NCBI GenBank assembly: GCA_019873725.1
Contig: JAIOAS010000001.1
Location: 40,257-104,256, forward strand
Origin: Chloroflexota bacterium
GTDB lineage: Bacteria; Chloroflexota; Anaerolineae; B4-G1; SLSP01
Length of the DNA: 64,000 nt
Direction: 5' to 3'
Positions 100 to 44,045 of this stretch are shown piece by piece (the stretch's first letter is position 1; each line of letters begins with the position of its first letter). Below the pieces are notes generated by a model. That model had not been told where the DNA came from. It made no database searches and was given only the letters and a program-made list of their open reading frames with translations. Both the position numbers and the translations under genes were made by a program.

Positions 100-140
100 C
101 CTCCTTGAGTTGCGAGTTATGAGTTGCGAGTTACTGGTTA
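100..140. repeat. heptanucleotide tandem repeat (GAGTTNN units)
   Basis: gagttgc gagttat gagttgc gagttac, directly read. The same repeat family recurs at 22322-22360 and 23318-23350. Confidence 0.8.
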
Positions 141-168
141 CAGACAAGGGCTGTCTGTTGCTAGAGCA

Positions 169-702
169 TCAGGGAGACAAGGGGTGCAGCGTGAGTTCCG
201 GGGACGGCACGCGGTAGAAGCCGGGATTGCGCCGGATCACTGCGTCGGCCAGCGGTGTTACCAACGGACGCAGCACGATTTGCACTGTCGTCAGATCGGC
301 GTTGCCCCGGTCGAGCGCCGTATCCACGAATACTGCACCCAGCACTGCCTCGAAGACGTCGCTGAGCACCGAGGTGCGTTGGCGCAGGCCGCGAATGTCG
401 GCGCGTTGACTCAAATGCACGGCTTCAGGCAATTCCAGTTGCCGGGCGAAGCGCGCCAGGCTTTCAGCACGCACCAACTCGGCGCGCAGGATGCTCATCT
501 GCCCCGGCCCGAAGTGCGGGAAGTCGCGGTAGAGCCAGTAGGTGACCGCCAGTTCCAACACCGCATCGCCCAGGTGTTCCAGGCGCTCGTAGTTCGGCGC
601 GCCGGCCGAACTGTGGGTCAAGGCCAGGCGCAGCAGATCAGGGTTGACGAAATGGTAGCCCAACCGTTGTTGGAGTTCGTGGGTGAGCGTGGGATTCACG
701 GT
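169..702 (-). CDS. RNase III catalytic-domain protein (Mini-III-like; no obvious dsRBD)
   Basis: Contains LGYHFVNPDLLRLALTHSS...ERLEHLGDAVLELAVTYWLY, the RNase III signature (ERLEFLGDA-type). Probable GTG start at 702 with an upstream GGAGGTG. The first 85 aa of the track ORF overlap the upstream gene and look non-coding. The C-terminus lacks a recognisable dsRNA-binding domain. Confidence 0.6.
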   Translation of the reverse strand, partial: TVNPTLTHELQQRLGYHFVNPDLLRLALTHSSAGAPNYERLEHLGDAVLELAVTYWLYRDFPHFGPGQMSILRAELVRAESLARFARQLELPEAVHLSQRADIRGLRQRTSVLSDVFEAVLGAVFVDTALDRGNADLTTVQIVLRPLVTPLADAVIRRNPGFYRVPSPELTLHPLSP

Positions 703-1133
703 ACACCTCCGGCGTCGAACCAGGGTTCTTCTTCCAGCCAACGGTGGAGCACGTCCATCTCCGGCGCGTCCAGGGTGGCTTTCACAGTCTCCCACAGAAC
801 TGCACCGGACGCGAAATCGGCTAACGCCCAGGTCGCCAAAGTTTCCCACGGGGCGAAGCGTCCTTGCATCCACAGGCTGACCGTGGATGCAGTGTTGGGA
901 AACATCAGGCGATAGGGCGTCAGATCGTCGGTGAACGAAAAATACATCCACACCGCGCTTGGCGGCGTGAGGGTCATTGCGCCCCGTAAGTGTGTCACTG
1001 TGGGATCATCGCGCAACGCGCTACCGGTTTCTTGGATCAGCCGGGCGCGGCATTGCTGTTGTTCCGGGGTGAAGACCACGGGGTGTGCGGGTGCTGCCAG
1101 TACGGGCAGCTTCAGGACAGGGGCAAAGGTCAT
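696..1133 (-). CDS. hypothetical protein (145 aa)
   Basis: ORF immediately upstream of the RNase III-like gene, overlapping its start (translational coupling). No recognisable motif. Confidence 0.4.
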   Translation of the reverse strand: MTFAPVLKLPVLAAPAHPVVFTPEQQQCRARLIQETGSALRDDPTVTHLRGAMTLTPPSAVWMYFSFTDDLTPYRLMFPNTASTVSLWMQGRFAPWETLATWALADFASGAVLWETVKATLDAPEMDVLHRWLEEEPWFDAGGVP

Positions 1134-1265
1134 TGTGTACCTCCTCGTAGGTGACGAGGAAGCCGGCGTCTCCTGTCACGGAGGCGCGACGGCCTCCTCG
1201 ACAGGAATGGAGAAAAGCGCCTGGGAGCCAGTCCACAGGCGCTTTCACGGATGTAGGGCAGAAAC

Positions 1266-1766
1266 CTACTCCTCAGACAACGTAGGCGCGACGCGCTGCA
1301 TGGTCTTGAACCAGACCACCTGTTTCAGTCCACCGGCTACCACCAGGGCGACCACGGCCAGCAAGAGCAGGCCGGGGTGCGCACCGTGACGGGCGGCGAA
1401 GGGAAACAGGCGCGGCGCTTGGGCATACAGCCACAGTAGTCCGGGCACAATCAAGGCCAACAGGAGCAACCACCGCCACCGACCTTGCCGTCCGCGCGGC
1501 TTGCGCCGGGGTGCGGACCGAGGGTGGCGCGGCGTTGGCTGCTGTTGGGACCGCCAGGGGCGGTTCTCCGCTGACGGCAACGCAGGTTCAGCTTGCACGG
1601 CCTGCCGTTGCGGTCGCCAATGCAGGTTCTCCGCTTCACGGGGTTCCTGCCGTGGACACTCCTGGACCTGACGCCCCGGACCGTGCTGCGCAGGGTGACG
1701 GCGATGGACACGGCGTTGCTGTGCAACGCCGTGTATCTGCGTAACGCTGTATAACTGCGTCTCCAT
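1266..1766 (-). CDS. hypothetical small membrane protein (basic, disordered N-terminus plus 2 TM helices)
   Basis: Hydrophobic stretches WRWLLLLALIVPGLLWLY and LLLLAVVALVVAGGL. Starts 3 nt after the stop of the upstream gene (1770), so it is operon-embedded. Low-complexity, high-GC N-terminus lowers confidence. Confidence 0.3.
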   Translation of the reverse strand: METQLYSVTQIHGVAQQRRVHRRHPAQHGPGRQVQECPRQEPREAENLHWRPQRQAVQAEPALPSAENRPWRSQQQPTPRHPRSAPRRKPRGRQGRWRWLLLLALIVPGLLWLYAQAPRLFPFAARHGAHPGLLLLAVVALVVAGGLKQVVWFKTMQRVAPTLSEE

Positions 1767-1769
1767 CGC

Positions 1770-2681: not shown

Positions 2682-2983
2682 TGCATACCTCCGATTAGAT
2701 TTGTGATTTGCTGATTTGAGATTGGTTGATTACCAGTGGATCACAACGGAGCGGCGCAGTATTCCTCCACAGGGGAGAACGATGCGCCTCCCGTGTGAAG
2801 GACAACAACGAAACACATTGGGTCAGCCGGACGCCCCATCGCCCGGCTGCACCGTGTTGGCGAAGCTGGCGTTGGGGTAGCGCGTGGGTGAACAAGGGTA
2901 TCAATCAGTGCGTCTCCCGCGCACCGACTGTCGATGGGCCGGGGCACAGGAGAGGCCAAAGCAAAGATGGGCAGGGTAAGGCG

Positions 2984-3050
2984 TAAAACGTAAAACGTAA
3001 GGGAAAAAAGGCACCGCCTTTCTTACATTTTACGTCTTTACGTTTTCCTA
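2984..3050. repeat. palindromic intergenic element ('AAAACGTAAAACGTAAG ... CTTACATTTTACGTCTTTACGTTTT')
   Basis: Inverted repeat read directly. Related copies occur at 20026-20095 and 51636-51700 (a partial one at 42045-42065), always intergenic between co-directional genes. Confidence 0.75.
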
Positions 3051-3498
3051 TTGCGTATTGGCAGCCGCAGGAAACGCACCGGGGTTGTCTTCCGGGCGCT
3101 GCCCACGGCTCTGCCTTTCGCAGTCAAATATAGGTATTGAGGTTGTTAAGGTTCTGCCCATTGCGCCCCAACCTGTACAGATCAGAGCCGGATGTGAGGC
3201 CGGAGCCTCGGCATCATCATTGGGTTCAGGCAATGACGATGCCGCGACCACGGACTCGGGGTGGCATTGGAACGCAAAAAGCCCCACGCGGGTAAGCATC
3301 TAACGTGGACAGGGCCGTTCGACGAACGGGAGTCTGTCAAGCGTGAAAAACGTCAGATGCCCCGGTGGGGCTTTCAGGGTATGTCAGGATCCGGCGATGG
3401 GGCCGGAAATGGTACAACAAGGACAGCGTACCCGCAATAGACGCGGGCAGGTCAAGATGGGCAGGTTATGGAACTGGTAAGGAACGATTCTTACTCTT

Positions 3499-3528
3499 AT
3501 TATACCATATCGGAGGGGGTGAAATCAA
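3499..3528 (-). promoter_or_regulatory. sigma-70-like promoter on the minus strand (TTGATT-18nt-TATAAT)
   Basis: Reverse complement of 3499-3528 reads TTGATT tcaccccctccgatatgg TATAAT. Nearly identical promoter boxes occur at 38701-38730 and 52351-52380. Confidence 0.45.
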
Positions 3529-3591: not shown

Positions 3592-4734
3592 TTAAAGAAT
3601 ACTAACCGCCTTGGCTATTTGGCTAATTGCCTCCCGTATATCGCTTTCCGTTGTCATTCGACCTAATGAAATGCGGATAGATGCACTGGCCTGTTCGCGC
3701 GTCAAGCCTATCGCTTGCAAGACATGCGAGGGTTCCATTGCGCCAGTATGACAAGCCGCGCCGGTGCTCATCATCAAACCTGGCAAACGGAGCAGCAATG
3801 CATCAGCTTCGACACCCTCGAAAGTGATATTGGTGGTGTTTGGCAAGCGGGGCGCGTGTTGAGCATTGATTCGCAGTTTGGGGATGGCTTCCAGCAAGCC
3901 ACGTTCCAATTCGGCTTGATACTCCCTCAGACGAGCACTTTCTTGAGGTAGTTCTGCGGCGACAATTTCGCAGGCTGCACCTAAGCCCACGATAGCTGGC
4001 ACATTCGAGGTTCCGGCACGCAGACCGGACTCCTGTCCGCCGCCCTCCAACATTGGGCGGATAGGAATAGAACGTGCTCCGTCACGTATGTACAATACGC
4101 CGATTCCTTTGGGACCGTACAACTTATGTGCGCTGCATGAGAGCAAATCGACACCCCACTCCCGCACATCACAGGGGATTTTGCCTATGGCTTGTGCCGC
4201 GTCCGTGTGAACCAGTGCGCCGTGATGGTGCGCGAGTTCCGCAATTCTGGCGATAGGCTGAAGTGTGCCGATCTCGTTATTAGCAGCTTGAATCGAGACC
4301 AGGAAAGTATCTTCACCTACAGCCTGTTCTAGCTCATCGAGCGATACTAGCCCATTGTAATCTACTGGAAGGATAATTTCCTCAAAGCCTTGTTCAACGA
4401 GCCGCTTGCAGGGGGCAAGTACAGCTTTGTGTTCGATGGCACAGGTGATGATCTTGTGGCGGGCAGTTGGAGCGTACTCGGCTGTTCCTAAAATCGCAAG
4501 GTGATTGCTTTCGGTAGCGCCGGAGGTGAAAACAATCTCAGCAGGGAGAGCCCCAATCAGCGCGGCGACCTGCTCGCGAGCGTTGTCCATTGCTCGCGCC
4601 GCTTTACGTCCCAAAACGTGCAGACCGTTAGCGGGGTTGCCGTAGACTTCACTGAAGTAGGGCAGCATCGCCTGTATAACACGAGGGTCACACGGGGTGG
4701 TAGCGTTATAATCCAGATATATGGGACTGCTCAT
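3592..4734 (-). CDS. class-V aminotransferase / cysteine desulfurase (IscS/NifS/DndA/SspA-like)
   Basis: N-terminal YLDYNATTP and SCSAHKLYGPKGIGVLYIR (PLP-lysine region) are typical of NifS/IscS. It is the last gene of the co-directional defence cluster. Confidence 0.8.
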   Translation of the reverse strand: MSSPIYLDYNATTPCDPRVIQAMLPYFSEVYGNPANGLHVLGRKAARAMDNAREQVAALIGALPAEIVFTSGATESNHLAILGTAEYAPTARHKIITCAIEHKAVLAPCKRLVEQGFEEIILPVDYNGLVSLDELEQAVGEDTFLVSIQAANNEIGTLQPIARIAELAHHHGALVHTDAAQAIGKIPCDVREWGVDLLSCSAHKLYGPKGIGVLYIRDGARSIPIRPMLEGGGQESGLRAGTSNVPAIVGLGAACEIVAAELPQESARLREYQAELERGLLEAIPKLRINAQHAPRLPNTTNITFEGVEADALLLRLPGLMMSTGAACHTGAMEPSHVLQAIGLTREQASASIRISLGRMTTESDIREAISQIAKAVSIL

Positions 4735-4765
4735 AGTTTATCCGGTGGACGAAGATGACGTCGGC

Positions 4766-6193
4766 CTACGACAACTCATACTGAATATCTTCATCATATT
4801 GCCGATACTCCGCATCCAACATATACAATTGATCCCAAACCAGTTGGCGCAGTTCTACTGCCGGGCGCACACAATAGATTTCAAAATCTTCCAGACTGAC
4901 CGCTCCGTGTGGAAATTGCAACTTCATTAGTCCGCTGGCAATCAGATGTACGGCGTCTTCGTTGCGTTTATAGCGTTTTCGCCCCGTTAGAGTGACAGTG
5001 CGGCTGACGTATTGATTGGCACTGACATCTTCACGCAACGCCAGCAAAGCATCACCGAAAAAATCGGATTTTAATCCTATGCCCTGTGCGAAGGATTCAC
5101 CGCTTAGTTTGCGTACCTTCCAACCAGGCAGGATGCCACGAAGACGGTCGAGAAAAGCTGTCTCTTGCAGGAATTCGGGAAGTTCTTTGACCAACGGTGA
5201 AAGGATAGGACGTTGTTCATTATCGAGCTGGATATTTGCCAGCATAACGAGGCTGCACGCACTGGCTGTCTCATACATACCGCCGCGCGTCAAGCGTCCA
5301 TTAGCTAAAAAGCCTTTGAGTCCGCCGACGATTTCCTGCGGTTTCTCGAACTTGAGTGTTTGGACTTCATCTAACACTACCACAGCAAAACGCGCTAGCA
5401 AGCCCCATTGTCCGCTGGCATTGTTGACGAACAACACCGCCGGAGAGACATTTCCACCACTCATCAATCGTACACGTGGATTGATGTTTTCGTACAAGTA
5501 ACTCTTGCCCGTGCCTTTGGGAGCGAGTTCCAGTAGGTGCAGATTCTTTTCCACAAGCGGAAGCAAACGGCAGAGCAAATAAGTCTTCTCATTCTCGGTA
5601 AATGCCCAGGGACTGTAACCCATTGAAGTTAACAGCAGGGCACGCCACTCATCGAGTGTAAAGGCCGCTCGTTTTTCTTTGAATATCTCCAGGTTCACTG
5701 AAGCCTGCATCGGCTTGAAAGAGGTTATAGCAATACCTTCCTGAGTATCCACTAACTCCACTACACCCCACATACCTTGTTTGAGTAGATCAGGGTATGC
5801 TTCCACAATACCGTCGCCAATCTGAACCTCGGATAACCCTAGAAGCTTGAGTTGCGCAACACGCTCCTTAACGCGCCGGGTGAGAACAACTTCAACCTCC
5901 ACCGGCGTAAGCACCTTGACCACTTCACCATTGAGCAGGCGATTTTTGATGATTCTGGCCTCGTCAGGCAAGGGCAGAAAACGATCGGCCCAGGTCTGGA
6001 TTTTGGTCAATTCTTCCGGGGTAACCGCACCTTCCCCTGGAGCAAGGCTATCCAGGATCCATTCGGCTACGTAGGCCGGCACACTGCGCCGGTTCAACTG
6101 GCTAGAGGGTAGACGTCGCTTGTCTATCGCCAAGCGACCAAAGACCTGGCTCGCCTTCTGGTTCAATGCTTCGGGGGTGAGGACATCACTCAT
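4766..6193 (-). CDS. brxL: P-loop ATPase, BrxL-like (BREX Lon-like ATPase family, short form)
   Basis: Walker A LAPKGTGKSYLYENI and Walker B VVVLDEVQTL. Positioned directly downstream of PglZ, as in BREX cassettes. 4-nt overlap with the pglZ stop. At 475 aa it is shorter than canonical BrxL (~680 aa), so the Lon protease part may be absent. Confidence 0.5.
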   Translation of the reverse strand: MSDVLTPEALNQKASQVFGRLAIDKRRLPSSQLNRRSVPAYVAEWILDSLAPGEGAVTPEELTKIQTWADRFLPLPDEARIIKNRLLNGEVVKVLTPVEVEVVLTRRVKERVAQLKLLGLSEVQIGDGIVEAYPDLLKQGMWGVVELVDTQEGIAITSFKPMQASVNLEIFKEKRAAFTLDEWRALLLTSMGYSPWAFTENEKTYLLCRLLPLVEKNLHLLELAPKGTGKSYLYENINPRVRLMSGGNVSPAVLFVNNASGQWGLLARFAVVVLDEVQTLKFEKPQEIVGGLKGFLANGRLTRGGMYETASACSLVMLANIQLDNEQRPILSPLVKELPEFLQETAFLDRLRGILPGWKVRKLSGESFAQGIGLKSDFFGDALLALREDVSANQYVSRTVTLTGRKRYKRNEDAVHLIASGLMKLQFPHGAVSLEDFEIYCVRPAVELRQLVWDQLYMLDAEYRQYDEDIQYELS

Positions 6194-8352
6194 AAGTCTA
6201 GCTCCTTGAGCAGGTCATCAGGCTGCTCGTAAAGTGTCTCAACCTGAAGGTGAGGAACGACTTCGCTCGAGAAAGTAGTGCCGTTGGGTTGGCGGAACAA
6301 CAAGGTGGCCTTTAGATTCTTTTTATCAGACTCGGTCGGCCAGGGTGTTAGGGAGAGGTTAAAGCGAGTCTCATCAAGCGGTGGAATCTGCCAGTTGCCG
6401 CCGACTTGCACACCATGAGAGAAAGAAACGCCTAAACACTCCAGTATTATCTGGCTGGTGTTGATAATCACAACAGTGATTGTTCCAACGTGCTTGGCCT
6501 CGCCCTTGCCACTGATCACAATATTCAGCGCGGGTGTTTTAGCATCGCGCACGAAGACAAACCACGGAACAATAACCTCTTCAGGAAATAATCCGCCGTG
6601 CGGGTAGGGATCATAGCCCGCTTTGTCGTTCTCAAAACTCTCTTCCCCCCAGGCAACCAGCATATCATGCGCCATTTCAAAGCGTTCACCGTGAACGGCT
6701 ATTGTACCAGCGGTTTCGTCTATCGAAAAACCATGCTCGTCAAACTCCAGGTCGAGTTTGCCCCAGGCGACTCGTCCATGGGCTTGCATTCCTTTAGGAG
6801 TTGGTAAGCAGCGTGGTGATTTGGGATTGAGCAGCCGTCCGTGGTCGCTGGTGATGATGATGTGTAGAATGACTGAGTTGGGAAGACTCTGGACAACTTC
6901 AGATATTGCCTGAAGGATGCTCTCCAACTTCGCATGCACTTCCCGTTCCCGCTTGTCTTCACTCTCAAAGTGATAAGCTTTGTCAGGCTGTTCAACACGC
7001 CAGAAAACAACTTCACCAGACCGGATGTCTTTCAGGCCGCGTTTAGGGGAGGTATGATCAGGCAGAATGTATCCCAAAGGAGGATACTGCGGTGATAGCC
7101 GCGGCGGTACGCCTTTGAGCAGGGCATCTTTGGCAAACTCGGTGACGGTGGGCATGGGCGCAAAGCAGTACGATTTTTGCTCAAGCTGCAAACGTTCTAT
7201 TTTGGCCCCCATGGTGTGGATGAAGTCTTCGGCGTCCCAGGCAGGCAGCCCATCCAGGACAACACACAAGGTGAGGGCTTGCGGCGCAGCATCATGCAGA
7301 CGAGCGGAAATTTGGAACGAGAGGTTGCCCGGTTCAAGCAACCAGCGTGGGTAACAGGAGAGATACCACCGGACGAAATCTTGAGCACGTTGGACAATAC
7401 ATGTTCGCGCCTGCTCATCGCCAAAACGCGCTTGCCAGCGACGATAGGGGAGATATTCGGCCTCGAACCAGGCTAACACTGCTGTGGGGTCCTGCGGTAG
7501 AGCAGAGGGTTCTGGCGGCGGTAAGCGTTCTTCGAGTGTCGCGAGCGTTTGCGTGTTGAGATACGGCTGAAGATCGCGTAGAATACCACGGGTAAGAAGA
7601 GGAGTGTTTTGCTCGTAGAACTGAACAGCCAGTTGCGCCAATTCCTGACGTAAGGCAACTGACATCGGGAAAGCAAACATTTGAGCAAAATATACGCCCT
7701 TGCTCTCAATCAACCTTTTCATCCAGGCAGATTTGATTTCTGTCAGCAATGGTTCAGGAACCGGTAGCGGAAATTCATCCAGACTGTCAAGTTTTTCATC
7801 CGCTGCGCCTAGCCATCGCCAGAGTATGGATTTAGCGCCTTCAGAGGTAAACACACGATATAGTCCAGCTTCAGAAGCATTTACCGACCGTCGCTCCAGC
7901 TCAGTGGCGAGATAGTGCAGAATGACAGTTTCGGCATCATCAGGCCGATGCGTGAACAGCCATAGCAGCCAACGCGCAGCATGTTCGCGCGAGGGCGCAC
8001 CTTGCCAAAGCGCATAATCGTCAGGATAACAACAGTTCAGGACAAACGTAGCAGTCATTTGTTCGGGTGAGGCTATGGCCATGCCCATTTTTAGCGCCAA
8101 CTTGTCCGCCTGCTGCTGCAATAAGGCCGGAAAGGTGCGCTGTAAAACGACACGGAGTGATTCTCGATAACAATAAGGTCGTCCGCGCAGGCTATAAAAA
8201 GCCTCTGCCCAGGCACTCAGGCGCTCGCCTCGAATCAGGAGTGGTGTATCATCGGTAGCATAACGTAAGAAATCTACTTCACTGGCGATGACCTGATAGC
8301 CAGGCGGTGCGGGTAGGTCGCCCTGACGGTCGAGTATAACTTCGGTATGCAT
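6190..8352 (-). CDS. pglZ: PglZ-domain protein (alkaline-phosphatase superfamily, BREX)
   Basis: VVLDGLPAWDAEDF and IIITSDHGRLL (the TxDHG motif characteristic of PglZ). Size ~720 aa. The start overlaps the brxC stop (ATGA). Confidence 0.7.
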   Translation of the reverse strand: MHTEVILDRQGDLPAPPGYQVIASEVDFLRYATDDTPLLIRGERLSAWAEAFYSLRGRPYCYRESLRVVLQRTFPALLQQQADKLALKMGMAIASPEQMTATFVLNCCYPDDYALWQGAPSREHAARWLLWLFTHRPDDAETVILHYLATELERRSVNASEAGLYRVFTSEGAKSILWRWLGAADEKLDSLDEFPLPVPEPLLTEIKSAWMKRLIESKGVYFAQMFAFPMSVALRQELAQLAVQFYEQNTPLLTRGILRDLQPYLNTQTLATLEERLPPPEPSALPQDPTAVLAWFEAEYLPYRRWQARFGDEQARTCIVQRAQDFVRWYLSCYPRWLLEPGNLSFQISARLHDAAPQALTLCVVLDGLPAWDAEDFIHTMGAKIERLQLEQKSYCFAPMPTVTEFAKDALLKGVPPRLSPQYPPLGYILPDHTSPKRGLKDIRSGEVVFWRVEQPDKAYHFESEDKREREVHAKLESILQAISEVVQSLPNSVILHIIITSDHGRLLNPKSPRCLPTPKGMQAHGRVAWGKLDLEFDEHGFSIDETAGTIAVHGERFEMAHDMLVAWGEESFENDKAGYDPYPHGGLFPEEVIVPWFVFVRDAKTPALNIVISGKGEAKHVGTITVVIINTSQIILECLGVSFSHGVQVGGNWQIPPLDETRFNLSLTPWPTESDKKNLKATLLFRQPNGTTFSSEVVPHLQVETLYEQPDDLLKELDL

Positions 8353-35491: not shown

Positions 35492-35504
35492 ATTCTCCTC
35501 CTGG

Positions 35505-35705: not shown

Positions 35706-36604
35706 CAAAACACCGCATTGAAATCTTCCCACGCAAAGCCCCGCGTCTCCGGCAAGGCTTGTCCGGCATCCACGGTCGCGCGCCATAAGGCGGGGCGTAC
35801 CGCGAGGGACATCTTGCCGTTGAACACCGCCCAATCCAGGCTCTCGGCGGTGGTTTCGGGGACGAGCACGTCTACGCTCACCACCGGCCCGGCGATAAAC
35901 GGTGCGGGTTGCTGCCCGTCGGTGGTCACTGCCCCATACTGCGGGTTGGCGATCTGTTCGTGGTTGACGCGCACCACGATGGCTCCTGCTACCACCCGCT
36001 TGGTCACCGGCAGTTGCAGCGTGACCGTCACGGGCTGCGTCAACGCCTCATAGTCGGGTAGCGGTTCTGGTGTAGGCGGGGCTGGCGTGACCCCGACGGG
36101 CAAGGGCGGCACGGTGCTGGTCGCCAACTCGGTGGCGCGCACGGTGCCTAACGTGGTGTACAAGTCCACCAGGTCGCCCACCGCGATGTACGGTGTACTC
36201 TCGGCGTCGACCGGGATGGACTTGATGACCAACTGGGGATCGGTGAGGGCCAACGCCAGACGGCGCACCTTCTCGGCGTTCTCACCGGTGGCGATGCGTC
36301 CCCGGTTGAGGACGTCGCCCGCGCGGACCGTCTCAACGAAGACCCCGTCGGCCAGCATCGCCTGCAAGGTTTCCGGCGTCAACACCACTTGCAAGAGCGA
36401 CGCGCTAAACGACTGCTTGTCCAGGGCGATGTAGCCGTTGGTATAGGCGTCTTGCAATGACGTGTACGCTGGAATATCCTGCACCGCGATGGCGACCTCG
36501 TAGGTGGGCGGCGTGGTGAGCTGCGCGAACAGCAACACCCCCACGAACGCGCCCCCGACGAGCAGCAGGCCAACCCAGAATTGAATGGATTTCAGAATAC
36601 GCAT
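35651..36604 (-). CDS. cpaB: CpaB/RcpC-like Flp pilus assembly protein
   Basis: N-terminal TM, then a SAF-like region (YEVAIAVQDIPAYTSL), then an RcpC-like C-terminus. Confidence 0.65.
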   Translation of the reverse strand: MRILKSIQFWVGLLLVGGAFVGVLLFAQLTTPPTYEVAIAVQDIPAYTSLQDAYTNGYIALDKQSFSASLLQVVLTPETLQAMLADGVFVETVRAGDVLNRGRIATGENAEKVRRLALALTDPQLVIKSIPVDAESTPYIAVGDLVDLYTTLGTVRATELATSTVPPLPVGVTPAPPTPEPLPDYEALTQPVTVTLQLPVTKRVVAGAIVVRVNHEQIANPQYGAVTTDGQQPAPFIAGPVVSVDVLVPETTAESLDWAVFNGKMSLAVRPALWRATVDAGQALPETRGFAWEDFNAVFWNGRRNTVDGRQGETETR

Positions 36605-36658
36605 TTCGTTTGTCTCCTTGATGTAAGTGATTTGCTATTAGCTGTCAGCCGTCAGCGA

Positions 36659-37213
36659 TCAGCTTTTCTGACTGCTGGCTGAACGCTGAAAGCTGATCGC
36701 TGAGAGCTTTTTCTTGACGCCCAATGTCTCTTCCCCAATAACCTGCGCTGCCGCCTTCAGGTCGCCGACGACCGCGTGAGCCTGCGGCCATTGCTGCTTA
36801 AGACGGCGCTCGTGCCATTGGGCGACTGGGGTGTCGGCGCTGACAATGAGGATCAGGCCGGCGATGTCTACCAGGGCGGATGGTGGGGTCGTGCCACCGT
36901 CGGCAATGACGTGGCCCAATGCCGCCGCGTCCCACACGAAGGCCATCACCGGCGCTTGCCATACGGTGCAGGCGGCGCTCCACAGCAACGGTTGATGGGA
37001 TTCGACGGCTTGCTCAACAGCGCATCCTCGTTGAGCAGCCGTCCAATGCACGATCCTGCTCAGATCGAGCACCGGCGCGCCTGGCCCGGCCATTTGTAGG
37101 GCCAGTGTACCGTCGGCGGCGTCCAGGGGGACGGCGTTGGCCTGTCGGCACAGGTATTGCGCCAGCGTGGTTGCTCCTAGCCCGCCCTTTGCGCCCACGA
37201 CGAGGATTAGCAT
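36659..37213 (-). CDS. CpaE/MinD-like protein with degenerate Walker A (likely non-catalytic)
   Basis: MLILVVGAKGGLGATTLA: the P-loop Lys is replaced (GGLGAT instead of GGVGKT). Confidence 0.45.
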   Translation of the reverse strand: MLILVVGAKGGLGATTLAQYLCRQANAVPLDAADGTLALQMAGPGAPVLDLSRIVHWTAAQRGCAVEQAVESHQPLLWSAACTVWQAPVMAFVWDAAALGHVIADGGTTPPSALVDIAGLILIVSADTPVAQWHERRLKQQWPQAHAVVGDLKAAAQVIGEETLGVKKKLSAISFQRSASSQKS

Positions 37214-38520: not shown

Positions 38521-38539
38521 TTTCCTAACCCCTTTTGAC

Positions 38540-38693
38540 GCAAACAAAAAGGGGAGGACCTGGAACCGAAGTTCCAAGTCCTCCCCTTTTGTTTCCAGGC
38601 CAGTTTCCCTGGCCCGGACGCCGCAGGCTTGAAGGCTTCCTGCGGATCGGAGCGTTTAGCCCCAGACCTTTTCGCGATGGTTGTGCATCACTA
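38540..38693 (-). ncRNA. candidate structured leader RNA / small RNA, copy 1 (promoter to terminator, ~150 nt)
   Basis: Flanked by the promoter at 38701-38730 and the terminator at 38546-38590. The internal sequence CGCGAAAAGUCUGGGGCU..CUCC..CCGCAGGAAGCCUUCAAGCCUGCGGCG is conserved with copy 2 at 52178-52343. Stems CCGCAGG/CCUGCGG are preserved while the loops differ. Confidence 0.5.
38546..38590 (-). terminator. rho-independent terminator / attenuator hairpin (AAAAGGGGAGGAC...GUCCUCCCCUUUUU)
   Basis: 13-bp GC-rich stem, followed on the minus strand by UUUUUGUUUG. An identical stem occurs at 52187-52229. Confidence 0.7.
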
Positions 38694-38700
38694 TATCTCT

Positions 38701-38730
38701 ATTATATCATGCCGGACATGGTGAAATCAA
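38701..38730 (-). promoter_or_regulatory. sigma-70-like promoter (TTGATT-18-TATAAT) on the minus strand
   Basis: Reverse complement reads TTGATT tcaccatgtccggcatga TATAAT. Confidence 0.55.
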
Positions 38731-38772
38731 GTAAGTTTTATGTGCAGAATTCACGGGTTGCGCATATCAAGT

Positions 38773-39108: not shown

Positions 39109-39167
39109 TGTTTCCTCCTTTCAGTATCCTGGCTGCGCTTTCCATAGCGCGCTTCTGTCAAACCGTC

Positions 39168-39317
39168 AAAAAATCGAAAAACGCGACGCGCTTCGCGCGG
39201 ATGGGACCTTCGGCCTGCGGCGGTCAGGCGTTGGGCAAACATCCGCGCTCTTCCAGGTTATCCCAAAGGTCCAAAGGCCAAAGGGCCAAATTACAAAGCG
39301 GGCGCTGCGCGCGATGG
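39168..39317 (-). other. conserved ~150-nt 3' element downstream of VR1, ending in a GC hairpin plus U-tract (terminator)
   Basis: Near-identical to 44044-44193 downstream of VR2. Minus-strand end reads CGCGCGAAGCGCGUCGCGUUUUUCGAUUUUUU. Confidence 0.6.
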
Positions 39318-42041
39318 GGAGACGACCACCCGAAAACCGATGAGCCTGAACCAGTTGAGCGGGTAGTACCTGAAGCGAAAGGCGCAGCGGGCGTAGATTC
39401 GATCGTCGAAGAACGCGCCACCCCGCAACACACGGGCGAGCCCATCTCCCGCTTCCAAGTCCTCCCGCTTATCACCTACTCGGTATGGATACTTGAAATC
39501 TGCCTTCTTCCGATCCTCACCCCACAAACTTCGCGTCCACTCCCACACGTTGCCCACCATATCCAGACACCCATACGGGCTACTCCCTTCCGGGTACATT
39601 CCCACGGGCGAAGTGGTTCCCAACCCGCTTTCCTCTGCGTTACATTTCCCTGCGTCCCACTCGTCGCCCCAGGGATAGATACGTCCGTCTGTACCCCGCG
39701 CCGCTTTTTCCCACTCGGCCTCGCTCGGCAAGCGTACTTCTTCGTTCCGACTGATTTTCCCTTCCTTCCGCCACACGCCGGTTAGCCATTGGCAATAAGC
39801 CCGCGCGTCGTACCAGGTCACATATACGACCGGATGATTGGCAACACCCTGCAAGCAATCCGGGTCAGTCGGCCGGTATCCGCTCGCTTCTACAAAGCGC
39901 CGGAACTGCGCCACCGTCACCGGGTACTTGCCGATTTTGAAGGTTGGCAAATTGACTTCGTGTTGTGGTTTCTCGCTATCTTCTGCCATCTTGTCCGCGT
40001 TTGTGCTGCCCATCTTGAACTTCCCTGCCGGGATCTCGATCAATTCATCGAAGTCCCGGTCGTCGCCCAAGACCGCCAGGGCGTTGCCTGCCAGCAGTCG
40101 CACAGTGGCCGGGGCCGTGGAGAAGTCCGGCGCTCGCCACAGGCTTGCCAGCCGCGCCCGGGCTTGTTCTACCAACACCGGCTCCGGGTCGGGCAAATCG
40201 CCCAGACCGCTCGCCGCCAGTTCTGCCGCTGCCAGGCGTGTTCCCATATTGCCTTCCAAATTGCACAACGCCCCGATGAAGGCCGCGCGCTGCTCGTAGG
40301 AAACCGGTGAATCCAGGCTGCCCACCGTCAACAATAAGGCTTCACGCCACCACTCTGCGGTAACAACGCGCGTCAGGAAGTCCGGCGTCCAGTGTTGCGC
40401 CAGGAATTGCGCCGTCAGGTACTCTTGAAACGTCAGGTGGGTAAACTGATAGCGCCCGCCGCGCTCCTCGAACAATCCACCGCGATGTCCCGCTGCTGCC
40501 AAAAAGGGTTCCAACAATGCCGTTTCACCGCGCTGCTCGAAGACAGGAGTCAGGATGCGTCGCACTCCGTTGTCGTCCAGGCTGGCGCCGGCTTGCCCAC
40601 CCTGGTGCATCTGGAACGCCAGATACGACAGCCACTCGCGTTGCTTGCTGGGTGGGCCGCCCGCGCTCACGACGCCCTGACGCGCTCCCGCGTCATCTTC
40701 GCGCCCGGTATACTCGCTGTTCAGGATCACGTCCACGCAGGCGTCGTACAGCTTGGCCCGCTCGCGCGGCAGTTCGCGGCGGCTGTATTTGACGCTCACC
40801 ACCATTGTCACTAACAGCGGGGTGTCAATCAAAGCGGGTTGCCCGCGCTGCCGGCGCTCGGTATTCAAGCGGTTGATCACGCCGGTCAAGTCTGCGCAGG
40901 CGACTTCTCTGTCATGTGGCTGTGCGTAAATCTGCTCGCACCACGCCCCCACCAGCGCGGCAATCTGCTCCTCGGTCAGAGCTTGCACGTCGCAGCGCAC
41001 AAAGTCGCTGCCAAACGGCGCGTCCCGGTAGCCGGCCTCGCGCGCCGTCACCAGACAGCGGTTGCCGGGATACTGGACGGTGAGTAGATGTTCCACTCCG
41101 TCGCGTACCACCCGCCGTTCCGTTACCTGCATTACCTCATCCAGGCCATCCAGCAGGATGAGACAGCCCTTGCCGCCGCGCAGCAGACGCTCGAAGAAGT
41201 CCTCCGCCGCGTCGAAGTTCTTGTAGCGCGCTTTCAGAAACCAGAGCAGGAACTCGCCCAACGTTCCGGCTTCCGGTGTGTGATAGCGATTGACCTGTCG
41301 GCACTGCTCGCGGTAGACTTGCCAAAAGCGCAGCGGGGCCAGCAATGGAACCGGCAAGGCCGCGTCAGGCTGCGGCGGTTTGAGGCGTACATCCAGCGGT
41401 TGCCCTAGCAGCGCCCCGGCCAGCGTCGAGGCGACAAATGCCAGATACGTCGTTTTGCCCGATCCGGCTTTTCCGATGATGGCGATACGGTCGCCCAGCG
41501 TGAGTAGATCGGCCATATCCAATAGCGGCGGTTCAGCGGCTTTGGCCTCGGTGGGCAGTTCTTGCCGTCCGCGCCGTCTGGCAATCTCGCCACCCGGTTC
41601 CACCGCCGGGCGATGTTGCACGCGCAGTGAGGTGTAGATGGTGGTGAGGGGCTTATCCAGCGCGCCGGTTTGTTGGAGATTCTGCAGGCCATGCAGGCGC
41701 GTGCGCGCATATTCCCGGCGTACCCAACCCAGGTAGTCGGCCAACACTTTCGCGAACTCGTCTTCGGTAAGTTTCGGTTTGCCCGGTGCGGTCTGGTAGA
41801 CCTTGAAAAGTTGCACCAGGTTGTGACTGCCGACGACGTTGGCGTCGCCGTTGATGTCTACAGCATCTCCGGCGATATTGGTTTGGGTTGTCACCGTCTG
41901 GTCGCGCTGGTCGTAGATGGTCTTTGCCTCTTGCTCCAGGCCCTTCAATGCCGCCTGGTATAGATCATCCGGCAGCACCCCTGCCGCGTGCAAGTTTTCC
42001 AACTTCTGGCGTTTTGTTTCTAAGTCGGTAGCCGTCATCAA
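39291..42041 (-). CDS. NACHT-family STAND NTPase fused to a C-terminal FGE-sulfatase (C-type-lectin fold) domain; DGR target 1
   Basis: P-loop DRIAIIGKAGSGKTTYLAFV. C-terminus has FGE-sulfatase motifs ([62 protein letters not shown]). VR1 lies in its last ~40 codons. N-terminal Q/N-rich motif TIYDQRDQTVTTQTNIAG. Confidence 0.8.
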   Translation of the reverse strand: MMTATDLETKRQKLENLHAAGVLPDDLYQAALKGLEQEAKTIYDQRDQTVTTQTNIAGDAVDINGDANVVGSHNLVQLFKVYQTAPGKPKLTEDEFAKVLADYLGWVRREYARTRLHGLQNLQQTGALDKPLTTIYTSLRVQHRPAVEPGGEIARRRGRQELPTEAKAAEPPLLDMADLLTLGDRIAIIGKAGSGKTTYLAFVASTLAGALLGQPLDVRLKPPQPDAALPVPLLAPLRFWQVYREQCRQVNRYHTPEAGTLGEFLLWFLKARYKNFDAAEDFFERLLRGGKGCLILLDGLDEVMQVTERRVVRDGVEHLLTVQYPGNRCLVTAREAGYRDAPFGSDFVRCDVQALTEEQIAALVGAWCEQIYAQPHDREVACADLTGVINRLNTERRQRGQPALIDTPLLVTMVVSVKYSRRELPRERAKLYDACVDVILNSEYTGREDDAGARQGVVSAGGPPSKQREWLSYLAFQMHQGGQAGASLDDNGVRRILTPVFEQRGETALLEPFLAAAGHRGGLFEERGGRYQFTHLTFQEYLTAQFLAQHWTPDFLTRVVTAEWWREALLLTVGSLDSPVSYEQRAAFIGALCNLEGNMGTRLAAAELAASGLGDLPDPEPVLVEQARARLASLWRAPDFSTAPATVRLLAGNALAVLGDDRDFDELIEIPAGKFKMGSTNADKMAEDSEKPQHEVNLPTFKIGKYPVTVAQFRRFVEASGYRPTDPDCLQGVANHPVVYVTWYDARAYCQWLTGVWRKEGKISRNEEVRLPSEAEWEKAARGTDGRIYPWGDEWDAGKCNAEESGLGTTSPVGMYPEGSSPYGCLDMVGNVWEWTRSLWGEDRKKADFKYPYRVGDKREDLEAGDGLARVLRGGAFFDDRIYARCAFRFRYYPLNWFRLIGFRVVVSPSRAAPAL
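39318..39438 (-). other. DGR variable region VR1 (3' end of the NACHT-FGE gene 39291..42041)
   Basis: 121 nt aligned to TR (42301-42421). Every mismatch falls at a position where the coding-strand TR has A (plus-strand T). Example: TR gttcctgttcctgttgttcggg vs VR1 gagcctgaaccagttgagcggg. Confidence 0.85.
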
Positions 42042-42245
42042 GCCTCCTTACGTATTACGTTTTACCCGCCGGGTGGCCCGGCTCAGGGAGCGTGTCTTCG
42101 ACACGTGGCCCAGGAGCCGGGCCGGTTCTATCTTCGCCCGGCCGCCCTCACCCTTTCTCCCTTCTCCCTTTGGGAGAGGGGCCGGGGGTGAGGGCGGACG
42201 CGGCCAGGGACGCGGCGCGCCATTATGCCTCGGCCGGAGAGAGTG

Positions 42246-42265
42246 CGTCTGCGAGGACGCAGACG
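42246..42265 (-). other. stem-loop immediately 3' of the TR on the RNA strand (cgtctgcg-agga-cgcagacg)
   Basis: 8-bp perfect stem read directly. A second long inverted repeat (gccctcaccc...gggtgagggc) lies at ~42130-42185. Confidence 0.45.
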
Positions 42266-42300
42266 TGACCCCACCCGGCATTTCCGGCGGAGCATAACGT

Positions 42301-42421
42301 GGAGACGACCACCCGAAAACCGATGTTCCTGTTCCTGTTGTTCGGGTTGTTCCTGTTGCGATAGGCGCAGCGGGCGTTGTTTCGATTGTTGTTGAACGCG
42401 CCACCCCGCAACACACGGGCG
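42301..42421 (-). other. DGR template repeat (TR)
   Basis: Encodes the Asn-rich peptide [37 protein letters not shown] (AAC codons at the variable positions). Homologous to VR1 and VR2 with A-specific differences. Lies 38 nt downstream of avd. Confidence 0.85.
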
Positions 42422-42458
42422 TCTTTCCGCCGATCCCCGCACGTATGGGGCTATCCAT

Positions 42459-42818
42459 TCAGGACGGCCCCGGTGTGCCTTCCGGTTTCTTGATCCAACC
42501 GCCGAGCATCTTCCCGATCTCCTGTACCATCAGCGAGACGTGGCGATACTGGTCTTCGTCCAGCCATTTCCAGCAGTTCGCCAGCCGCAGGTAGAGACGC
42601 ACTTTGTCCAGGTCGGCGTCGGCTTGCCGCAGCAGCAGCACCCGCGCGTGCCCACGCACCCGGTTGGCCTCGATGATGCGCTCCTGGAAATCCAGCAGCG
42701 CATCCTGCAAGCGCCTGGTCACGACGAAACGGTGGCTGCGCGGGAAGTTGAGCGTGTGCGGGATGAGCCACGTGATCAGGTCATACGTTTTCGGGAAAAT
42801 CGGCGCTGCATCGGACAT
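42459..42818 (-). CDS. avd: DGR accessory variability determinant (Avd)
   Basis: 119-aa basic helical protein (FPRSHRFVVTRRLQDALLDFQERIIEANRVRG...KVRLYLRLANCW) between the RT and the TR. Size and composition are typical of Avd. Confidence 0.7.
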   Translation of the reverse strand: MSDAAPIFPKTYDLITWLIPHTLNFPRSHRFVVTRRLQDALLDFQERIIEANRVRGHARVLLLRQADADLDKVRLYLRLANCWKWLDEDQYRHVSLMVQEIGKMLGGWIKKPEGTPGPS

Positions 42819-42874
42819 ATAAGCTTCTCACACCTTGTAGGGCGATTTGCCAAATCGCCCCACACTCAACTCGC

Positions 42875-42920
42875 TGATCGCTGATAGCTGACGGCTGATA
42901 GCTGACGGCTGACAGCTTGA
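42875..42920. repeat. heptamer tandem repeat (GCTGANN units)
   Basis: gctgatcgctgatagctgacggctgatagctgacggctgacagc. Related arrays occur at 31078-31140 and 36640-36715. Confidence 0.75.
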
Positions 42921-43976
42921 TTAAAAGACGGCCTGCCGCGCCACGGCTTTGCGCAGGCCCCAGGTATCGCCGTAGCGCGTGTGGTTGATCCACCCCAGCA
43001 ATGAGGCGACGACGGCCTCTTGTGTCACCTCATTGTCGTTGTACTCGGCGAGCAGCGACCGCCAGCGCCGCCAGTAGGCCACGACTTTGCGGCTTTTGAC
43101 CCGCCGATGCGTAGGATACACCACAAAGCCCAAAAAGGGAATTCCTTCCGTCACTGGTTGCGGCTGCGCGCCGGAGTGGATGGTGAGCCGCAGCAGCGCC
43201 AGCCGTTCCACGATGGCGTCGCGCCAGGCCCACAGCGTCGCTTTGTCGGTGGCGAACAGGAGCAGGTCGTCCACGTAACGCACGTAGCCGCCGCTTTGCT
43301 TGCCGCACTGCAATTCCCGTTTGACGAAGTGATCGAACGGATTGAGCAGGCAGTTGGCCCAGAACTGGCTGGTGAGGTTGCCGATGGGCAAGCCCCTGGG
43401 ACGAAAGACAGAAAAGAGGTCGTCGCCGGGAAAGTAGACCATCGCGTATTCTTCGCTCAGGACGCCTACGCCGCTGGCGAGGATGCGGTCCACCAGCCAG
43501 AGCACGCCGTCGTCAGGGACTTTCTGCGCCAGAATGTCGCGCAAGATGGCGTGGTCAATGGAGGGGAAGAACTGCTTGAGATCGCATTGCAGCACGTAGG
43601 GGAAGCGTTGGGCGAACTGCTGCGCGCGGTCGAGGGCGCGGTGCGTGCCTTTGCCCACGCGGTTGGCGTAGGAATCGGCGATGAAGCTGCGCTCGAAAAT
43701 CGGTTCGATGACATTACACAGAGCGTGATGGACGACGCGATCCCGAAACGGCGCGGCGGAGATGAGGCGGCGCTTGGGTTCGTGGATGTAGAACGAGTGG
43801 TACGCGCCCGGTTGGTAGGTGCGGTCGCGCAATTCCTGTTCCAGTTCCAGCAGGTTATCCGCCAGGCGAATCTCGAACGCGGCGGCGGGCGACTTGCCGC
43901 GTTTGCCGCGCGCGGCCTTGCGGTGCGCCTCGCGCAGGTTCTGCCAGCTACAGACTTGGTCGTACAGGTCGGTCAT
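42921..43976 (-). CDS. diversity-generating retroelement reverse transcriptase
   Basis: RT motifs including [11 protein letters not shown] (YxDD) and the DGR-specific [13 protein letters not shown] ([I/L]GxxxSQ) signature. 351 aa. Confidence 0.9.
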
Positions 43977-43977
43977 A

Positions 43978-44045
43978 GGGAATCAGCGAATGGGCGAATC
44001 AGTGAATCAGCGAATGAGCAAATGGGCGAATCAGCAAATGAGCAA
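43978..44045. repeat. heptamer tandem repeat (GAATCAG / GCGAATG units)
   Basis: gaatcagcgaatgggcgaatcagtgaatcagcgaatgagcaaatgggcgaatcagcaaatgagc. Confidence 0.8.

Follow-up and report, generated by a model that had tools for sequence, protein, structure and literature searches.

Slippage-resized heptanucleotide arrays at gene junctions of Anaerolineae-like Chloroflexota, with possible hairpin and leader roles

Short tandem repeats and palindromes between bacterial genes have been described in several lineages. The heptanucleotide STRR repeats of cyanobacteria were reportedly first described in 1990. RNA hairpins in the gaps of co-transcribed genes are known from the REP/BIME elements of enterobacteria and from the RNase III sites between the early genes of phage T7, and the Rickettsia palindromic elements (RPE) are conserved elements of 100–150 bp inserted in frame in protein genes. 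As cited in later work, a 2007 report found that, in most prokaryotic genomes, heptamers are more common than any other long repeat unit. Besides, the TAACTGA repeats of marine Beggiatoaceae, some cyanobacteria and Bacteroidetes have been proposed to play a role in translation via a single-strand-binding protein (MacGregor 2015, PMC4679880). In the current study, we analyzed a stretch of 64,000 nucleotides (hereafter the window) from a Chloroflexota bacterium (assembly GCA_019873725.1, contig JAIOAS010000001.1, positions 40,257 to 104,256), in which tandem heptanucleotide arrays are found at the junctions between genes. Taken jointly, our results are best explained by STRR-like heptanucleotide (occasionally octanucleotide) microsatellites of an uncultured Anaerolineae-like Chloroflexota lineage, which are resized by slippage, confined to gene junctions and may have roles as hairpins and leaders. 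We hold this explanation with moderate confidence.

A unit of these arrays consists of a conserved 5-nt core and two variable bases, repeated at a spacing of 7 nt; units are spelled here on the minus strand, i.e., in the mRNA sense, unless the plus strand is stated. A first-pass annotation of the window had proposed that heptamer-periodic families exist, and this was borne out by Tandem Repeats Finder, a lag-autocorrelation scan and a strict core test; its spelling as a 5-nt core with two free positions (GAGTTNN, GCTGANN) also proved accurate. The strict test, in which an identical 5-mer core had to occur at least three times at a fixed spacing, detected 11 arrays at a spacing of 7 in the window, compared to 0.2 in shuffles, while there were none at spacings of 5, 6 and 10–12, one at 8 and two at 9. 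These 11 arrays are distributed over five cores, with the same cores recurring at unlinked sites. Overall, at least 10 unit families are present, and a single family recurs at two to five unlinked sites. Five lag-7 runs were seen in the autocorrelation scan of the window (none in composition-matched shuffles), and nothing at lags 4–6 and 9–13. Tandem Repeats Finder, a check that the annotation itself had suggested, gave arrays of period 7, 14 or 21 at every site that it had cited and at several further sites.

A search with the CpaF-type ATPase of the window retrieved six metagenome-assembled genome loci labelled Anaerolineae, Anaerolineales or Chloroflexia (81–93% amino acid identity), and 36 metagenome loci, mainly from activated sludge and bioreactors (92–96% amino acid and approximately 88–91% nucleotide identity). 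Period-7 arrays are present at the same junctions in these related loci. In the 644 kb formed by the window and the 42 related loci, the strict test detected 150 arrays at a spacing of 7, and 13, 5 and 11 at spacings of 6, 8 and 9, respectively. Loci of the close clade carry 26 arrays per 100 kb, corresponding to 2.9 per kb of non-coding sequence, and relatives with 78–82% identity carry 13 per 100 kb. Assembly artefacts, which would have undone the original proposal, were ruled out, since arrays recur at these junctions in over 40 independent assemblies, which were produced by different projects with different assemblers. The head-to-tail repetition of short units is thus far above chance, as in slippage-driven long simple-sequence repeats (unit of 5–11 nt).

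The composition of some families differs from the initial description. The presumed heptamer GAATCAG/GCGAATG is really an octamer family, GAATCAGC/GAATGAGC, with a period of 8, 16 or 24. The repeat described as CTACCGT (35505–35705) is real, but it consists of two short inverted arrays approximately 150 nt apart, enclosing a purine/pyrimidine palindrome, rather than of one array. Likewise, the repeats described as CTTGCNT (33975–34125) exist, but belong to two families (TCCTGCN x11 and TACTGGA x4–5 on the plus strand). Families that had been missed are ACGTAAA/TTTACGT, GGGAGTA, CCTTTGG (CCAAAGG on the plus strand), AAATCNN and a palindrome within the coding region 44608–44693. The GC content averages approximately 58% over the window and is 62–67% where the arrays lie. 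The arrays of the window are the following (z, z-score of the predicted fold).

100–140, minus strand: direct array AACTCNN x5, abutting the AGGAGG Shine-Dalgarno site of the gene with its start at 92; the stop of the RNase III-like gene 169–699 is 28 nt upstream of the array; z = 0.0.
2698–2731, minus strand: A/C-rich quasi-heptamer AAATCNN x5, ending 16 nt ahead of the start of gene 1770–2681.
2982–3052, minus strand: inverted arrays ACGTAAA/TTTACGT forming a hairpin within a 910-nt gap; −34.8 kcal/mol, z = −3.5.
20022–20098, minus strand: palindrome of ACGTAAA x3–4 and TTTACGT x4, filling the whole 79-nt gap from the stop of gene 20098–21603 to 3 nt before the ATG of gene 19569–20018; −38.5 kcal/mol, z = −7.2.
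22320–22360, minus strand: direct array AACTCNN x6, abutting the AAGGAGG of gene 21597–22307; relatives have ATTCNNA- or AACTC-type arrays there.
22365–22447, minus strand: octamer palindrome with a GAATCAGC/GAATGGAG arm and then a ATTCGCNC/ATTCGCTG arm, beginning at the stop of the TadE-like gene 22448–22930; z = −3.5 and −4.4.
22876–22904, minus strand: GGGAGTA x4 in the region coding for the N-terminal leader of the TadE-like protein 22448–22930.
23318–23350, minus strand: AACTCGC x4 in the region coding for the N-terminal leader of the TadE-like protein 22909–23355, upstream of its GQALIE motif.
31046–31139, minus strand: TCAGCNN x5 followed by CCAGCAA/CAAGCAA/CGAGTAA units, reaching the AGGAGG of the T2SSF/TadB-like gene 30153–31037; the tail of the upstream open reading frame (ORF) reads through; z of about 0 to −2.
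33976–34012, minus strand: ATCCAGC/AACCAGT x5, ending 14 nt before the start of gene 33164–33961 and partly pairing with upstream CTGGAAGC units.
34047–34125, minus strand: purine-rich direct array GCAGGAN/GCAAGAN x11, beginning at the stop of the ParA/CpaE-like gene 34124–35491.
35505–35705, minus strand: nested palindrome with outer arms GGTAGAC x3–4 (35674–35705) and GTCTACC x2–3 (35505–35552), and inner arms consisting of a GGGTGA-type purine arm and its pyrimidine complement, the 3' arm abutting the AGGAGG of gene 34124–35491; −104.3 kcal/mol, z = −5.05.
36640–36708, minus strand: palindrome of TCAGCNN x4 and GCTGANN x3 between genes 36659–37213 and 35651–36604; z = −3.5.
39263–39298, minus strand: CCTTTGG x4 with a period of 7–8, right after the stop of the diversity-generating retroelement (DGR) target gene 39291–42041; an identical copy is at 44139–44174.
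42040–42062, minus strand: ACGTAAN x2–3, abutting the AGGAGG of the DGR target gene 39291–42041.
42873–42917, minus strand: direct array TCAGCNN x6, beginning 3 nt past the stop of the DGR reverse transcriptase gene 42921–43976.
43978–44046, minus strand: octamer array ATTCGCTG/ATTTGCTC/ATTCGCCC x8, separated by 1 nt from the ATG of the DGR reverse transcriptase, which has no Shine-Dalgarno site; z = +1.0.
44139–44174, minus strand: CCTTTGG x4, right after the stop of the DGR target gene 44167–47226.
44608–44693, minus strand: in-frame heptamer palindrome with a GCAAGAN/GCAGGAN arm and then its complement (16-bp stem), in a loop of the FGE-sulfatase domain of the DGR target 44167–47226.
51635–51692, minus strand: palindrome ACGTAAA/TTTACGT between genes 51688–52089 and 47653–51603; z = −3.85.

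The position of the arrays relative to genes was assessed with a home-made caller based on a self-trained codon model, the boundaries of which are approximate. According to this model, virtually all genes of the window are on the minus strand, and the arrays sit between co-directional minus-strand genes of an operon-like run, or in their first or last codons. Pfam matches identify a Tad/Flp pilus operon at ~21.6–36.6 kb (two TadE-like proteins, two T2SSF, a prepilin-peptidase-like protein, a CpaF-type ATPase and a ParA/CpaE-like protein), which is adjoined by the DGR at ~39.3–47.2 kb; the remaining genes are of defence and conflict systems. Among 89 unique arrays in the 644 kb, 48 are intergenic, 30 are located within 90 nt of a stop and three within 90 nt of a start. 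The sum of 81 is in agreement with the exclusion of arrays from coding sequence or their admission at in-frame steps. The other eight are deeper in ORFs, five of them 95–151 nt from the stop of one read-through ORF tail. In all gaps tabulated, an array either starts 0–7 nt past the upstream stop or ends 1–16 nt ahead of the downstream start. Arrays take up most of the free spacer and stop exactly at the Shine-Dalgarno site, with AGGAGG or AAGGAGG directly after most of them (exceptions are 20019–20097 and the start of the reverse transcriptase gene at 43976).

The earlier observation that the repeats occur in gaps and at gene ends was confirmed. Three arrays of the window are in coding sequence, i.e., in the leaders of the two TadE-like proteins (22876–22904 and 23318–23350) and in the loop of a DGR target (44608–44693), and some of the apparent ends are due to read-through. 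In most relatives, the gene upstream of the junction at 36605 has a TGA stop 5 nt ahead of the hairpin, and the window has TCA at this position. ORF 36659–37213 is approximately 21 codons longer than in the related loci L003, L007, L008 and L011, and passes through the TCAGC/GCTGA hairpin. The change from TGA to TCA implies that the occurrence of repeats at gene ends is partly ORF read-through of non-coding arrays, and shows that predicted ORF ends become too long when an array has no stop in any sense frame. An 'all-frame stop array', in which a stop codon within the 7-nt unit would cycle through the three frames, was also considered and rejected, since none of the sense frames is closed in TCAGCNN, TTTACGT and GCAGGAN arrays.

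The length differences between relatives point to a specific mechanism of array growth. Non-coding indels form peaks at 14 nt (36 indels, with 22 at 13 nt and 23 at 15 nt), 21 nt (33, with 10 and 1 at the neighbouring lengths) and 28 nt (12, with 2 and 2), all clear of both neighbouring lengths, while the peak at 7 nt (106 indels) is weak compared to 6 nt (96), with 39 at 8 nt. Such whole-unit length steps between relatives are a property of slippage-driven long simple-sequence repeats. Indels in the interior of coding sequences peak at multiples of 3. The AACTCGC array in the TadE-like leader (23318–23350) has 0, 3 or 6 units across 16 relatives, changing by 21-nt steps only and always in frame; the GGGAGTA leader array (22876–22904) is unchanged in length in close relatives and absent in L005. 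The indel spectrum and the 21-nt steps of the leader fit whole-unit replication slippage filtered by the reading frame, for which the leader array is direct evidence.

Repeats of variable length at the 5' end of genes are also a feature of contingency (phase-variation) loci, for which the 7-bp repeats upstream of the Haemophilus influenzae hmw genes are a precedent. Unit gain and loss could, in the same way, switch or tune the expression of the Tad pilus and defence genes: repeats are present at 5' gene ends, including those of two TadE-like pseudopilin genes and of the DGR, their copy number differs between relatives, and repeats in the 5' untranslated region can tune expression (PMC12721329). 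We consider such a function very unlikely. The leader alleles (16/16) are all in frame and differ by 21-nt steps only, so that there is no on/off frameshift switch, while arrays occur at many unrelated gene junctions and at 3' ends, and the variation is seen between lineages that have diverged by ~10% and not within a population.

A comparison of copy number between relatives, as proposed in the first-pass annotation, revealed that orthologous arrays differ in unit number. They range from 0 to 11 units, e.g., from 0 to approximately 11 for GCAGGAN (34047–34125) and from 2 to 6 for GTCTACC, and the region 31046–31139 measures 107 to 198 nt in relatives, with added GGACTTN arrays. The families themselves are also exchanged. 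At the junction 36605–36720, three unrelated palindromic families alternate in relatives (TCAGCNN/GCTGANN, TCAGTNN/ACTGANN and GGAGTAA/TTACTCC), and six out of eight allele classes fold with z below −2.7. At the junction 35492–35715, the hairpin is kept in eight of 10 allele classes (z of −2.5 to −6.3). The hairpin thus persists through family turnover at these two orthologous junctions. In L001 and L019, a GGAGATTGAGAG/CTCCATACTCC palindrome takes the place of the octamer palindrome at 22365–22447. The suggested use of the repeats as lineage markers is justified in a weak sense, as copy number and family differ between relatives that are ~90% identical, but the cores are not lineage-specific, since control cores are equally common in viral contigs.

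Two architectures can be distinguished. In the first, a single G-poor direct array is flush with the Shine-Dalgarno site or the ATG, as for AACTCNN (100–140, 22320–22360), GTCTACC (35505–35520), ATCCAGC/AACAAGC (33976–34012, 31046–31075), ACGTAAN (42040–42062) and the octamer (43978–44046). The two direct arrays that were folded (100–140 and 43978–44046) are no better than shuffles (z = 0.0 and +1.0), and the G fraction in leaders (−45 to −16) is 0.17 with arrays vs. 0.275 without. In the second, inverted arrays give a hairpin of 15–30 bp directly past the upstream stop codon, as for ACGTAAA/TTTACGT (three unlinked sites), the GAATCAGC octamer palindrome, TCAGCNN/GCTGANN and the nested GGTAGAC/GTCTACC. 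The z-scores of these hairpins are between −3.5 and −7.2, with −104 kcal/mol for the largest fold. Some arrays are indeed extended imperfect palindromes, as noted in the first-pass annotation, with inverted arrays folding at z of −3.5 to −7. The idea of RNA-structure elements is plausible only for these inverted arrays, as the direct arrays are predicted to be unstructured.

Intrinsic terminators were ruled out as an identity of the hairpins: the terminator scan was not enriched (20 found, 14.8 expected), and the heptamer hairpins were not called and have no T-run. Canonical terminators are found elsewhere in the window (38547–38590 and 52188–52229), and are unlike the heptamer hairpins. Promoter-like sites were not enriched (4 found, 3.2 expected). 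No Rfam family was detected at gathering thresholds anywhere in the window, and a permissive Rfam scan of one side feature gave sub-threshold chance matches only. The same results bear on the proposal that the arrays are binding sites for sequence-specific DNA-binding regulators (heptad repeats, cf. SARP and ToxR/ToxT) or terminators, which we consider very unlikely. In other bacteria, proteins are known to bind heptameric direct repeats, and the hairpins described here come after stop codons. On the other hand, at least 10 unrelated unit families would require as many regulators, the units abut Shine-Dalgarno sites and not promoters, and the hairpins, lacking a T-run and not called terminator-like, belong to arrays inside an operon-like co-directional run.

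Heptamer arrays were also detected in viral contigs from IMG/VR. GAGTTNN x4 and GCTGANN x4 are each present in at least 120 viral contigs, and scrambled control cores in 72 and at least 120, so that the presence of a core alone is no lineage marker. In general, heptamer arrays are thus widespread in nature, which agrees with published work. Distinctive viral contigs with a GC content of ~60% (L251, L255, L204, L203 and L212) carry 16–23 arrays per 9–12 kb, nearly all of them TCAGCNN/GCTGANN and many hairpin-paired, and tailed-phage contigs have a (TCAGCNN)4-loop-(GCTGANN)4-7 hairpin at many gene junctions. In the siphovirus-like contig L255, which encodes a head-tail adaptor, tail terminator, major tail protein and tape measure protein, hairpins are located at many tail-module junctions, and the 3' arm abuts the ATG at one of them. 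A tblastx comparison of the dense viral contigs with the lineage of the window gave no meaningful homology. The order of the arms is strongly biased, TCAGC-to-GCTGA exceeding the reverse by 52:1 and TCAGT-to-ACTGA by 21:0, and GAGTT, GGCTA and GTGAT arrays are hardly ever paired. The arm order is the same on both strands, and transcription direction therefore cannot explain it. Arrays of GAGTTAT and AATTCAT reach a similar density in an AT-rich contig (L093, 34% GC).

The palindrome in the coding region 44608–44693 is part of a complete DGR with two targets (39291–47226, minus strand). The order in the sense direction is target 2 (NACHT and FGE-sulfatase, 44167–47226), reverse transcriptase (42921–43976), bAvd (42459–42818), template repeat (~42301–42421) and target 1 (39291–42041). 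The variable regions are at ~44194–44314 and ~39318–39438; those checked by eye differ from the template at template adenines, with an overall identity of 85–88%. The loop of target 2 that bears the palindrome is approximately 15 amino acids longer than in its paralogue target 1, and homologues at ~60% identity have either short-loop or long-loop forms. The DNA of long-loop homologues, one of them from a Thermoflexia genome, contains AAGTTNC/GCAACNT heptamer palindromes, with a best fold of −40 kcal/mol and a mixed strand preference. The hairpin of target 2 is unlikely to be a cis element of the DGR, as it is located ~300 nt upstream of the variable region. Both DGR targets have near-identical 3' tails (39109–39290 and 43977–44166), in which a CCTTTGG-type array is followed by a GC hairpin with a T-run, and most DGR target homologues from other organisms (L043–L047) have CTCTGGN-type heptamer arrays shortly past the stop.

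The occurrence of one family at unlinked sites and in phages, the fixed arm order, the alternation of different families at one junction, and the in-frame palindrome, located in a protein loop missing from short-loop homologues, would all be in agreement with small mobile palindromic elements (REP/BIME-, MITE- or Rickettsia RPE-like). The hairpins would then be copied by a transposase or gene conversion, and slippage would only resize them afterwards. We regard this as unlikely. No defined ends or target-site duplications were seen, the arm length varies continuously in 7-nt steps, many arrays are single-armed, and the leader array appears to grow in place from a proto-repeat. No transposase gene was found beside any array among the ORFs scanned, a search that did not extend to IS200/RAYT elsewhere in the genome.

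A further proposal, which is tentative and in our view doubtful, concerns the CAG-type palindrome, (TCAGYNN)3-5 - loop - (RCTGANN)3-7, with an arm order of 73 to 1 in the combined order counts. It may be a distinct junction element, shared by Chloroflexota chromosomes and tailed phages (many gene boundaries of the latter being marked by it), that is actively maintained by a dedicated factor, which could be a double-strand RNase, an RNA chaperone or a mobilising enzyme. On this view, proteins could also acquire heptamer palindromes of the same kind in frame, the DGR target loop being an example. If this were true, the heptamer arrays would be more than slippage noise, namely the visible part of a widespread undescribed system punctuating polycistronic transcripts.

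Returning to slippage-resized junction microsatellites, the comparative data show that the arrays arise and change in length by whole-unit replication slippage. Selection restricts them to those nucleotides that are free of constraint, from a stop codon to the ribosome-binding site that follows, and to peptide leaders or loops in which 21-nt (7-codon) steps are tolerated. In polycistronic mRNAs, the hairpins could serve as junction elements, either as double-stranded RNA processing sites or as 3'-exonuclease barriers, and might uncouple the stability of neighbouring cistrons, by analogy with the T7 early-gene RNase III sites or the E. coli REP hairpins. The direct arrays may keep the ribosome landing zone single-stranded or, alternatively, bind a single-strand-binding protein of the S1 or cold-shock type, as has been proposed for the Beggiatoaceae TAACTGA repeats. 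The two arms might stay complementary because the stem is under selection, or else through template-switch 'palindrome correction'. What suggests a function is position and architecture as read from the sequence, i.e., the placement from stop codon to Shine-Dalgarno site, the survival of the palindromes, and the G-depleted leaders predicted to be unstructured. A 176-amino acid protein with an RNase III domain only (Mini-III-like, 169–699) is encoded immediately upstream of the AACTCNN array 100–140. This vicinity is probably a coincidence, but the predicted domain shows that the lineage encodes enzymes specific for double-stranded RNA.

A purely mutational origin is a serious rival to this functional reading, and a number of results weigh against the latter. 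The sense strand was more stable than the antisense strand in 23 of 54 array-bearing junctions (p = 0.41), and a G-U pair excess on the sense strand was not found at these junctions. Without such an asymmetry, RNA-level selection is not demonstrated, and the palindromes could equally well have originated at the DNA level or purely by mutation; the strand-asymmetry test itself speaks neither for nor against an RNA role. Some orthologous junctions have no arrays (L005, L006 and L028), so that no single array is indispensable, and several junctions carry arrays without a significant hairpin, e.g., 31038–31145, which has direct arrays only. Besides, the 3' arm of a very stable stem at the start region (20019–20097 and 35492–35650) would be expected to hinder initiation, and the split between coding and non-coding arrays depends on the home-made gene caller.

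The mutational alternative holds that the arrays are neutral debris, i.e., that lineage-specific 7-nt slippage and template-switch palindrome correction fill unconstrained spacers without any function. It would account for the hypervariable copy number and family, the orthologous junctions without arrays, the lack of sense/antisense asymmetry, and the tolerance of arrays in a cleaved leader peptide and a protein loop. In viral contigs, arrays of arbitrary control cores are just as frequent, and the prevalence of heptamers among long repeat units in most prokaryotic genomes, as cited from the 2007 report, points in the same direction. What it explains less well is that the same few cores are found at unlinked sites (11 arrays, five cores), that the palindromic architecture is kept while the family changes, that the arm order is almost fixed (52:1 and 21:0), that arrays end exactly at the Shine-Dalgarno site, and that L255 keeps its tail-module junction hairpins despite the usual genome-size pressure on phages. 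We see neutral debris as possible, but not as the probable explanation.

A number of other features were noted in the window. A candidate small RNA is present in two copies (38530–38740 and 52170–52400, minus strand), each with a strong promoter TTGATTTC..N..TATGGTATAAT, a conserved RNA of ~110 nt and a canonical terminator AAAAGGGGAGGAC...GTCCTCCCCTTTTT, and has no Rfam match; its promoter is found a third time at ~3480–3520, upstream of gene 1770–2681. An island of lower GC content (3592–19273, 49–56%) encodes BrxL, a PglZ-like protein, two DUF4007 proteins, a PAPS-reductase-domain protein and large unannotated ORFs. It looks like a BREX/Dnd-like defence island, is tightly packed (193 nt non-coding) and has no heptamer arrays. 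The region 47045–54978 contains conflict-system domains (bDLD1 death-like, EAD9, CHAT protease and Trypco2) beside NACHT proteins; such a cluster is typical of multicellular or filamentous bacteria. A 120-nt tandem repeat (55696–56282, 4.9 copies, 85% identity) is located in the ORF 55050–58745 of 1231 amino acids; since 120 is a multiple of 3, it is a repeat at the protein level (40 amino acids) and unrelated to the heptamers.

The new elements in this study are the unit-step indels, the frame-filtered coding arrays, the palindromes that survive turnover, the near-fixed arm order, the use at phage junctions and the in-frame loop palindrome. The lineage provides a clean comparative series, with dozens of ~90%-identical relatives that share the operon and in which turnover is visible per junction. 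Two old questions become testable in this way, namely whether such arrays are mutational debris or mRNA junction elements, and what keeps the arms complementary. In practice, ORF finders extend gene ends through several of the arrays, and short-read assemblies may collapse them.

Considering the described systems, the arrays resemble the STRR repeats of Calothrix, Nostoc and Anabaena in their tandem 7-nt units, several unrelated families, dispersed intergenic sites and variable copy number, and STRR repeats are also found at junctions inside operons, as here. However, the units STRR1 CCCCAGT, STRR2 TTGGTCA and STRR3 CAACAGT do not occur even twice in tandem in the window and the 42 related loci. 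The STRR hosts are (filamentous, heterocystous) cyanobacteria, whereas the arrays studied here belong to Chloroflexota with ~60% GC, the closest loci being from Anaerolineae/Chloroflexota and from activated-sludge and bioreactor contigs. Unlike STRR, the window arrays have a fixed 5-nt core with two free positions, are often palindromic pairs and are flush to a canonical Shine-Dalgarno site. The analogy with STRR drawn in the first-pass annotation is thus apt in kind (multi-family, dispersed and copy-variable), but the arrays are not members of STRR, with no published unit in tandem. More generally, none of the published units STRR1-3, TAACTGA, GGGAATC, GGGGATT and GATAGRA was found twice in tandem in the 644 kb. 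A literature search found no paper on heptamer repeats in Anaerolineae, and a full-text search for the unit sequences gave chance primer matches only.

The TAACTGA repeats are similar in being direct heptamers (2–6 copies there) a few nucleotides upstream of starts that are predicted to be unstructured (PMC4679880). Heptamers near start codons are known from Nostoc as well. The corresponding direct forward arrays near starts are AACTCNN, GTCTACC, ATCCAGC, ACGTAAN and the octamer, which end 1–16 nt before starts, and the ACTGANN arrays of L002, L016 and viral contigs are a degenerate (ACTGATA)n register of the TAACTGA unit. TAACTGA itself has no occurrence in the window and is never in tandem in the 644 kb, and many other heptamers are repeated here, compared to one unit there. 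The Shine-Dalgarno site is canonical here but rare in the Beggiatoaceae TAACTGA genome, and CAG-type arrays are mostly inverted pairs, whereas that genome has 169 direct sets and one inverted (PMC4679880).

The Xanthomonas GGGAATC/(GGGANTN)n and Nostoc GGGGAYT repeats (Rehm et al. 2015, PMC4692102) are likewise heterogeneous heptamers with conserved and free positions, mostly of about four units. Those of Xanthomonas further share a high-GC host, common intergenic sites in related species, extensive variation in length and sequence, and some inverted pairs (PMC4692102). Their units are G-rich and quadruplex-capable, with one dominant family, while the arrays described here have no G-tracts and at least 10 families (PMC4692102). 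The (GATAGRA)n satellites of Chloroflexus aurantiacus (Subirana and Messeguer 2019, PMC6749651) are from the same phylum, and are heptamer-derived arrays scattered genome-wide; they form a single family that is not in tandem here, and junction placement and palindromes are not described there (PMC6749651). The occurrence in a high-GC genome, initially put forward as a distinction from STRR, is therefore no novelty, as the intergenic heptamers of Xanthomonas and (GATAGRA)n of C. aurantiacus precede it.

With REP/BIME and the T7 RNase III sites, the inverted arrays share imperfect palindromes after stop codons, starting here 0–7 nt past the stop with z of −3.5 to −7. Unlike in REP/BIME, the arms are internally 7-nt periodic and resized by slippage, with no conserved REP head sequence known here. 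A RAYT (IS200/IS605-like) gene was not found among the ORFs scanned in the 64 kb. The likeness to RPE lies in a palindromic repeat translated in frame in a tolerant protein loop (44608–44693), although the coding palindrome here consists of ~90 nt of heptamers and was seen in one protein family only. Overall, we conclude that the arrays belong to the generic slippage-driven long simple repeats, work like STRR and TAACTGA, and fall in no named sequence family, and that the Anaerolineae-like Chloroflexota are a new lineage for an already known class of bacterial repeats.

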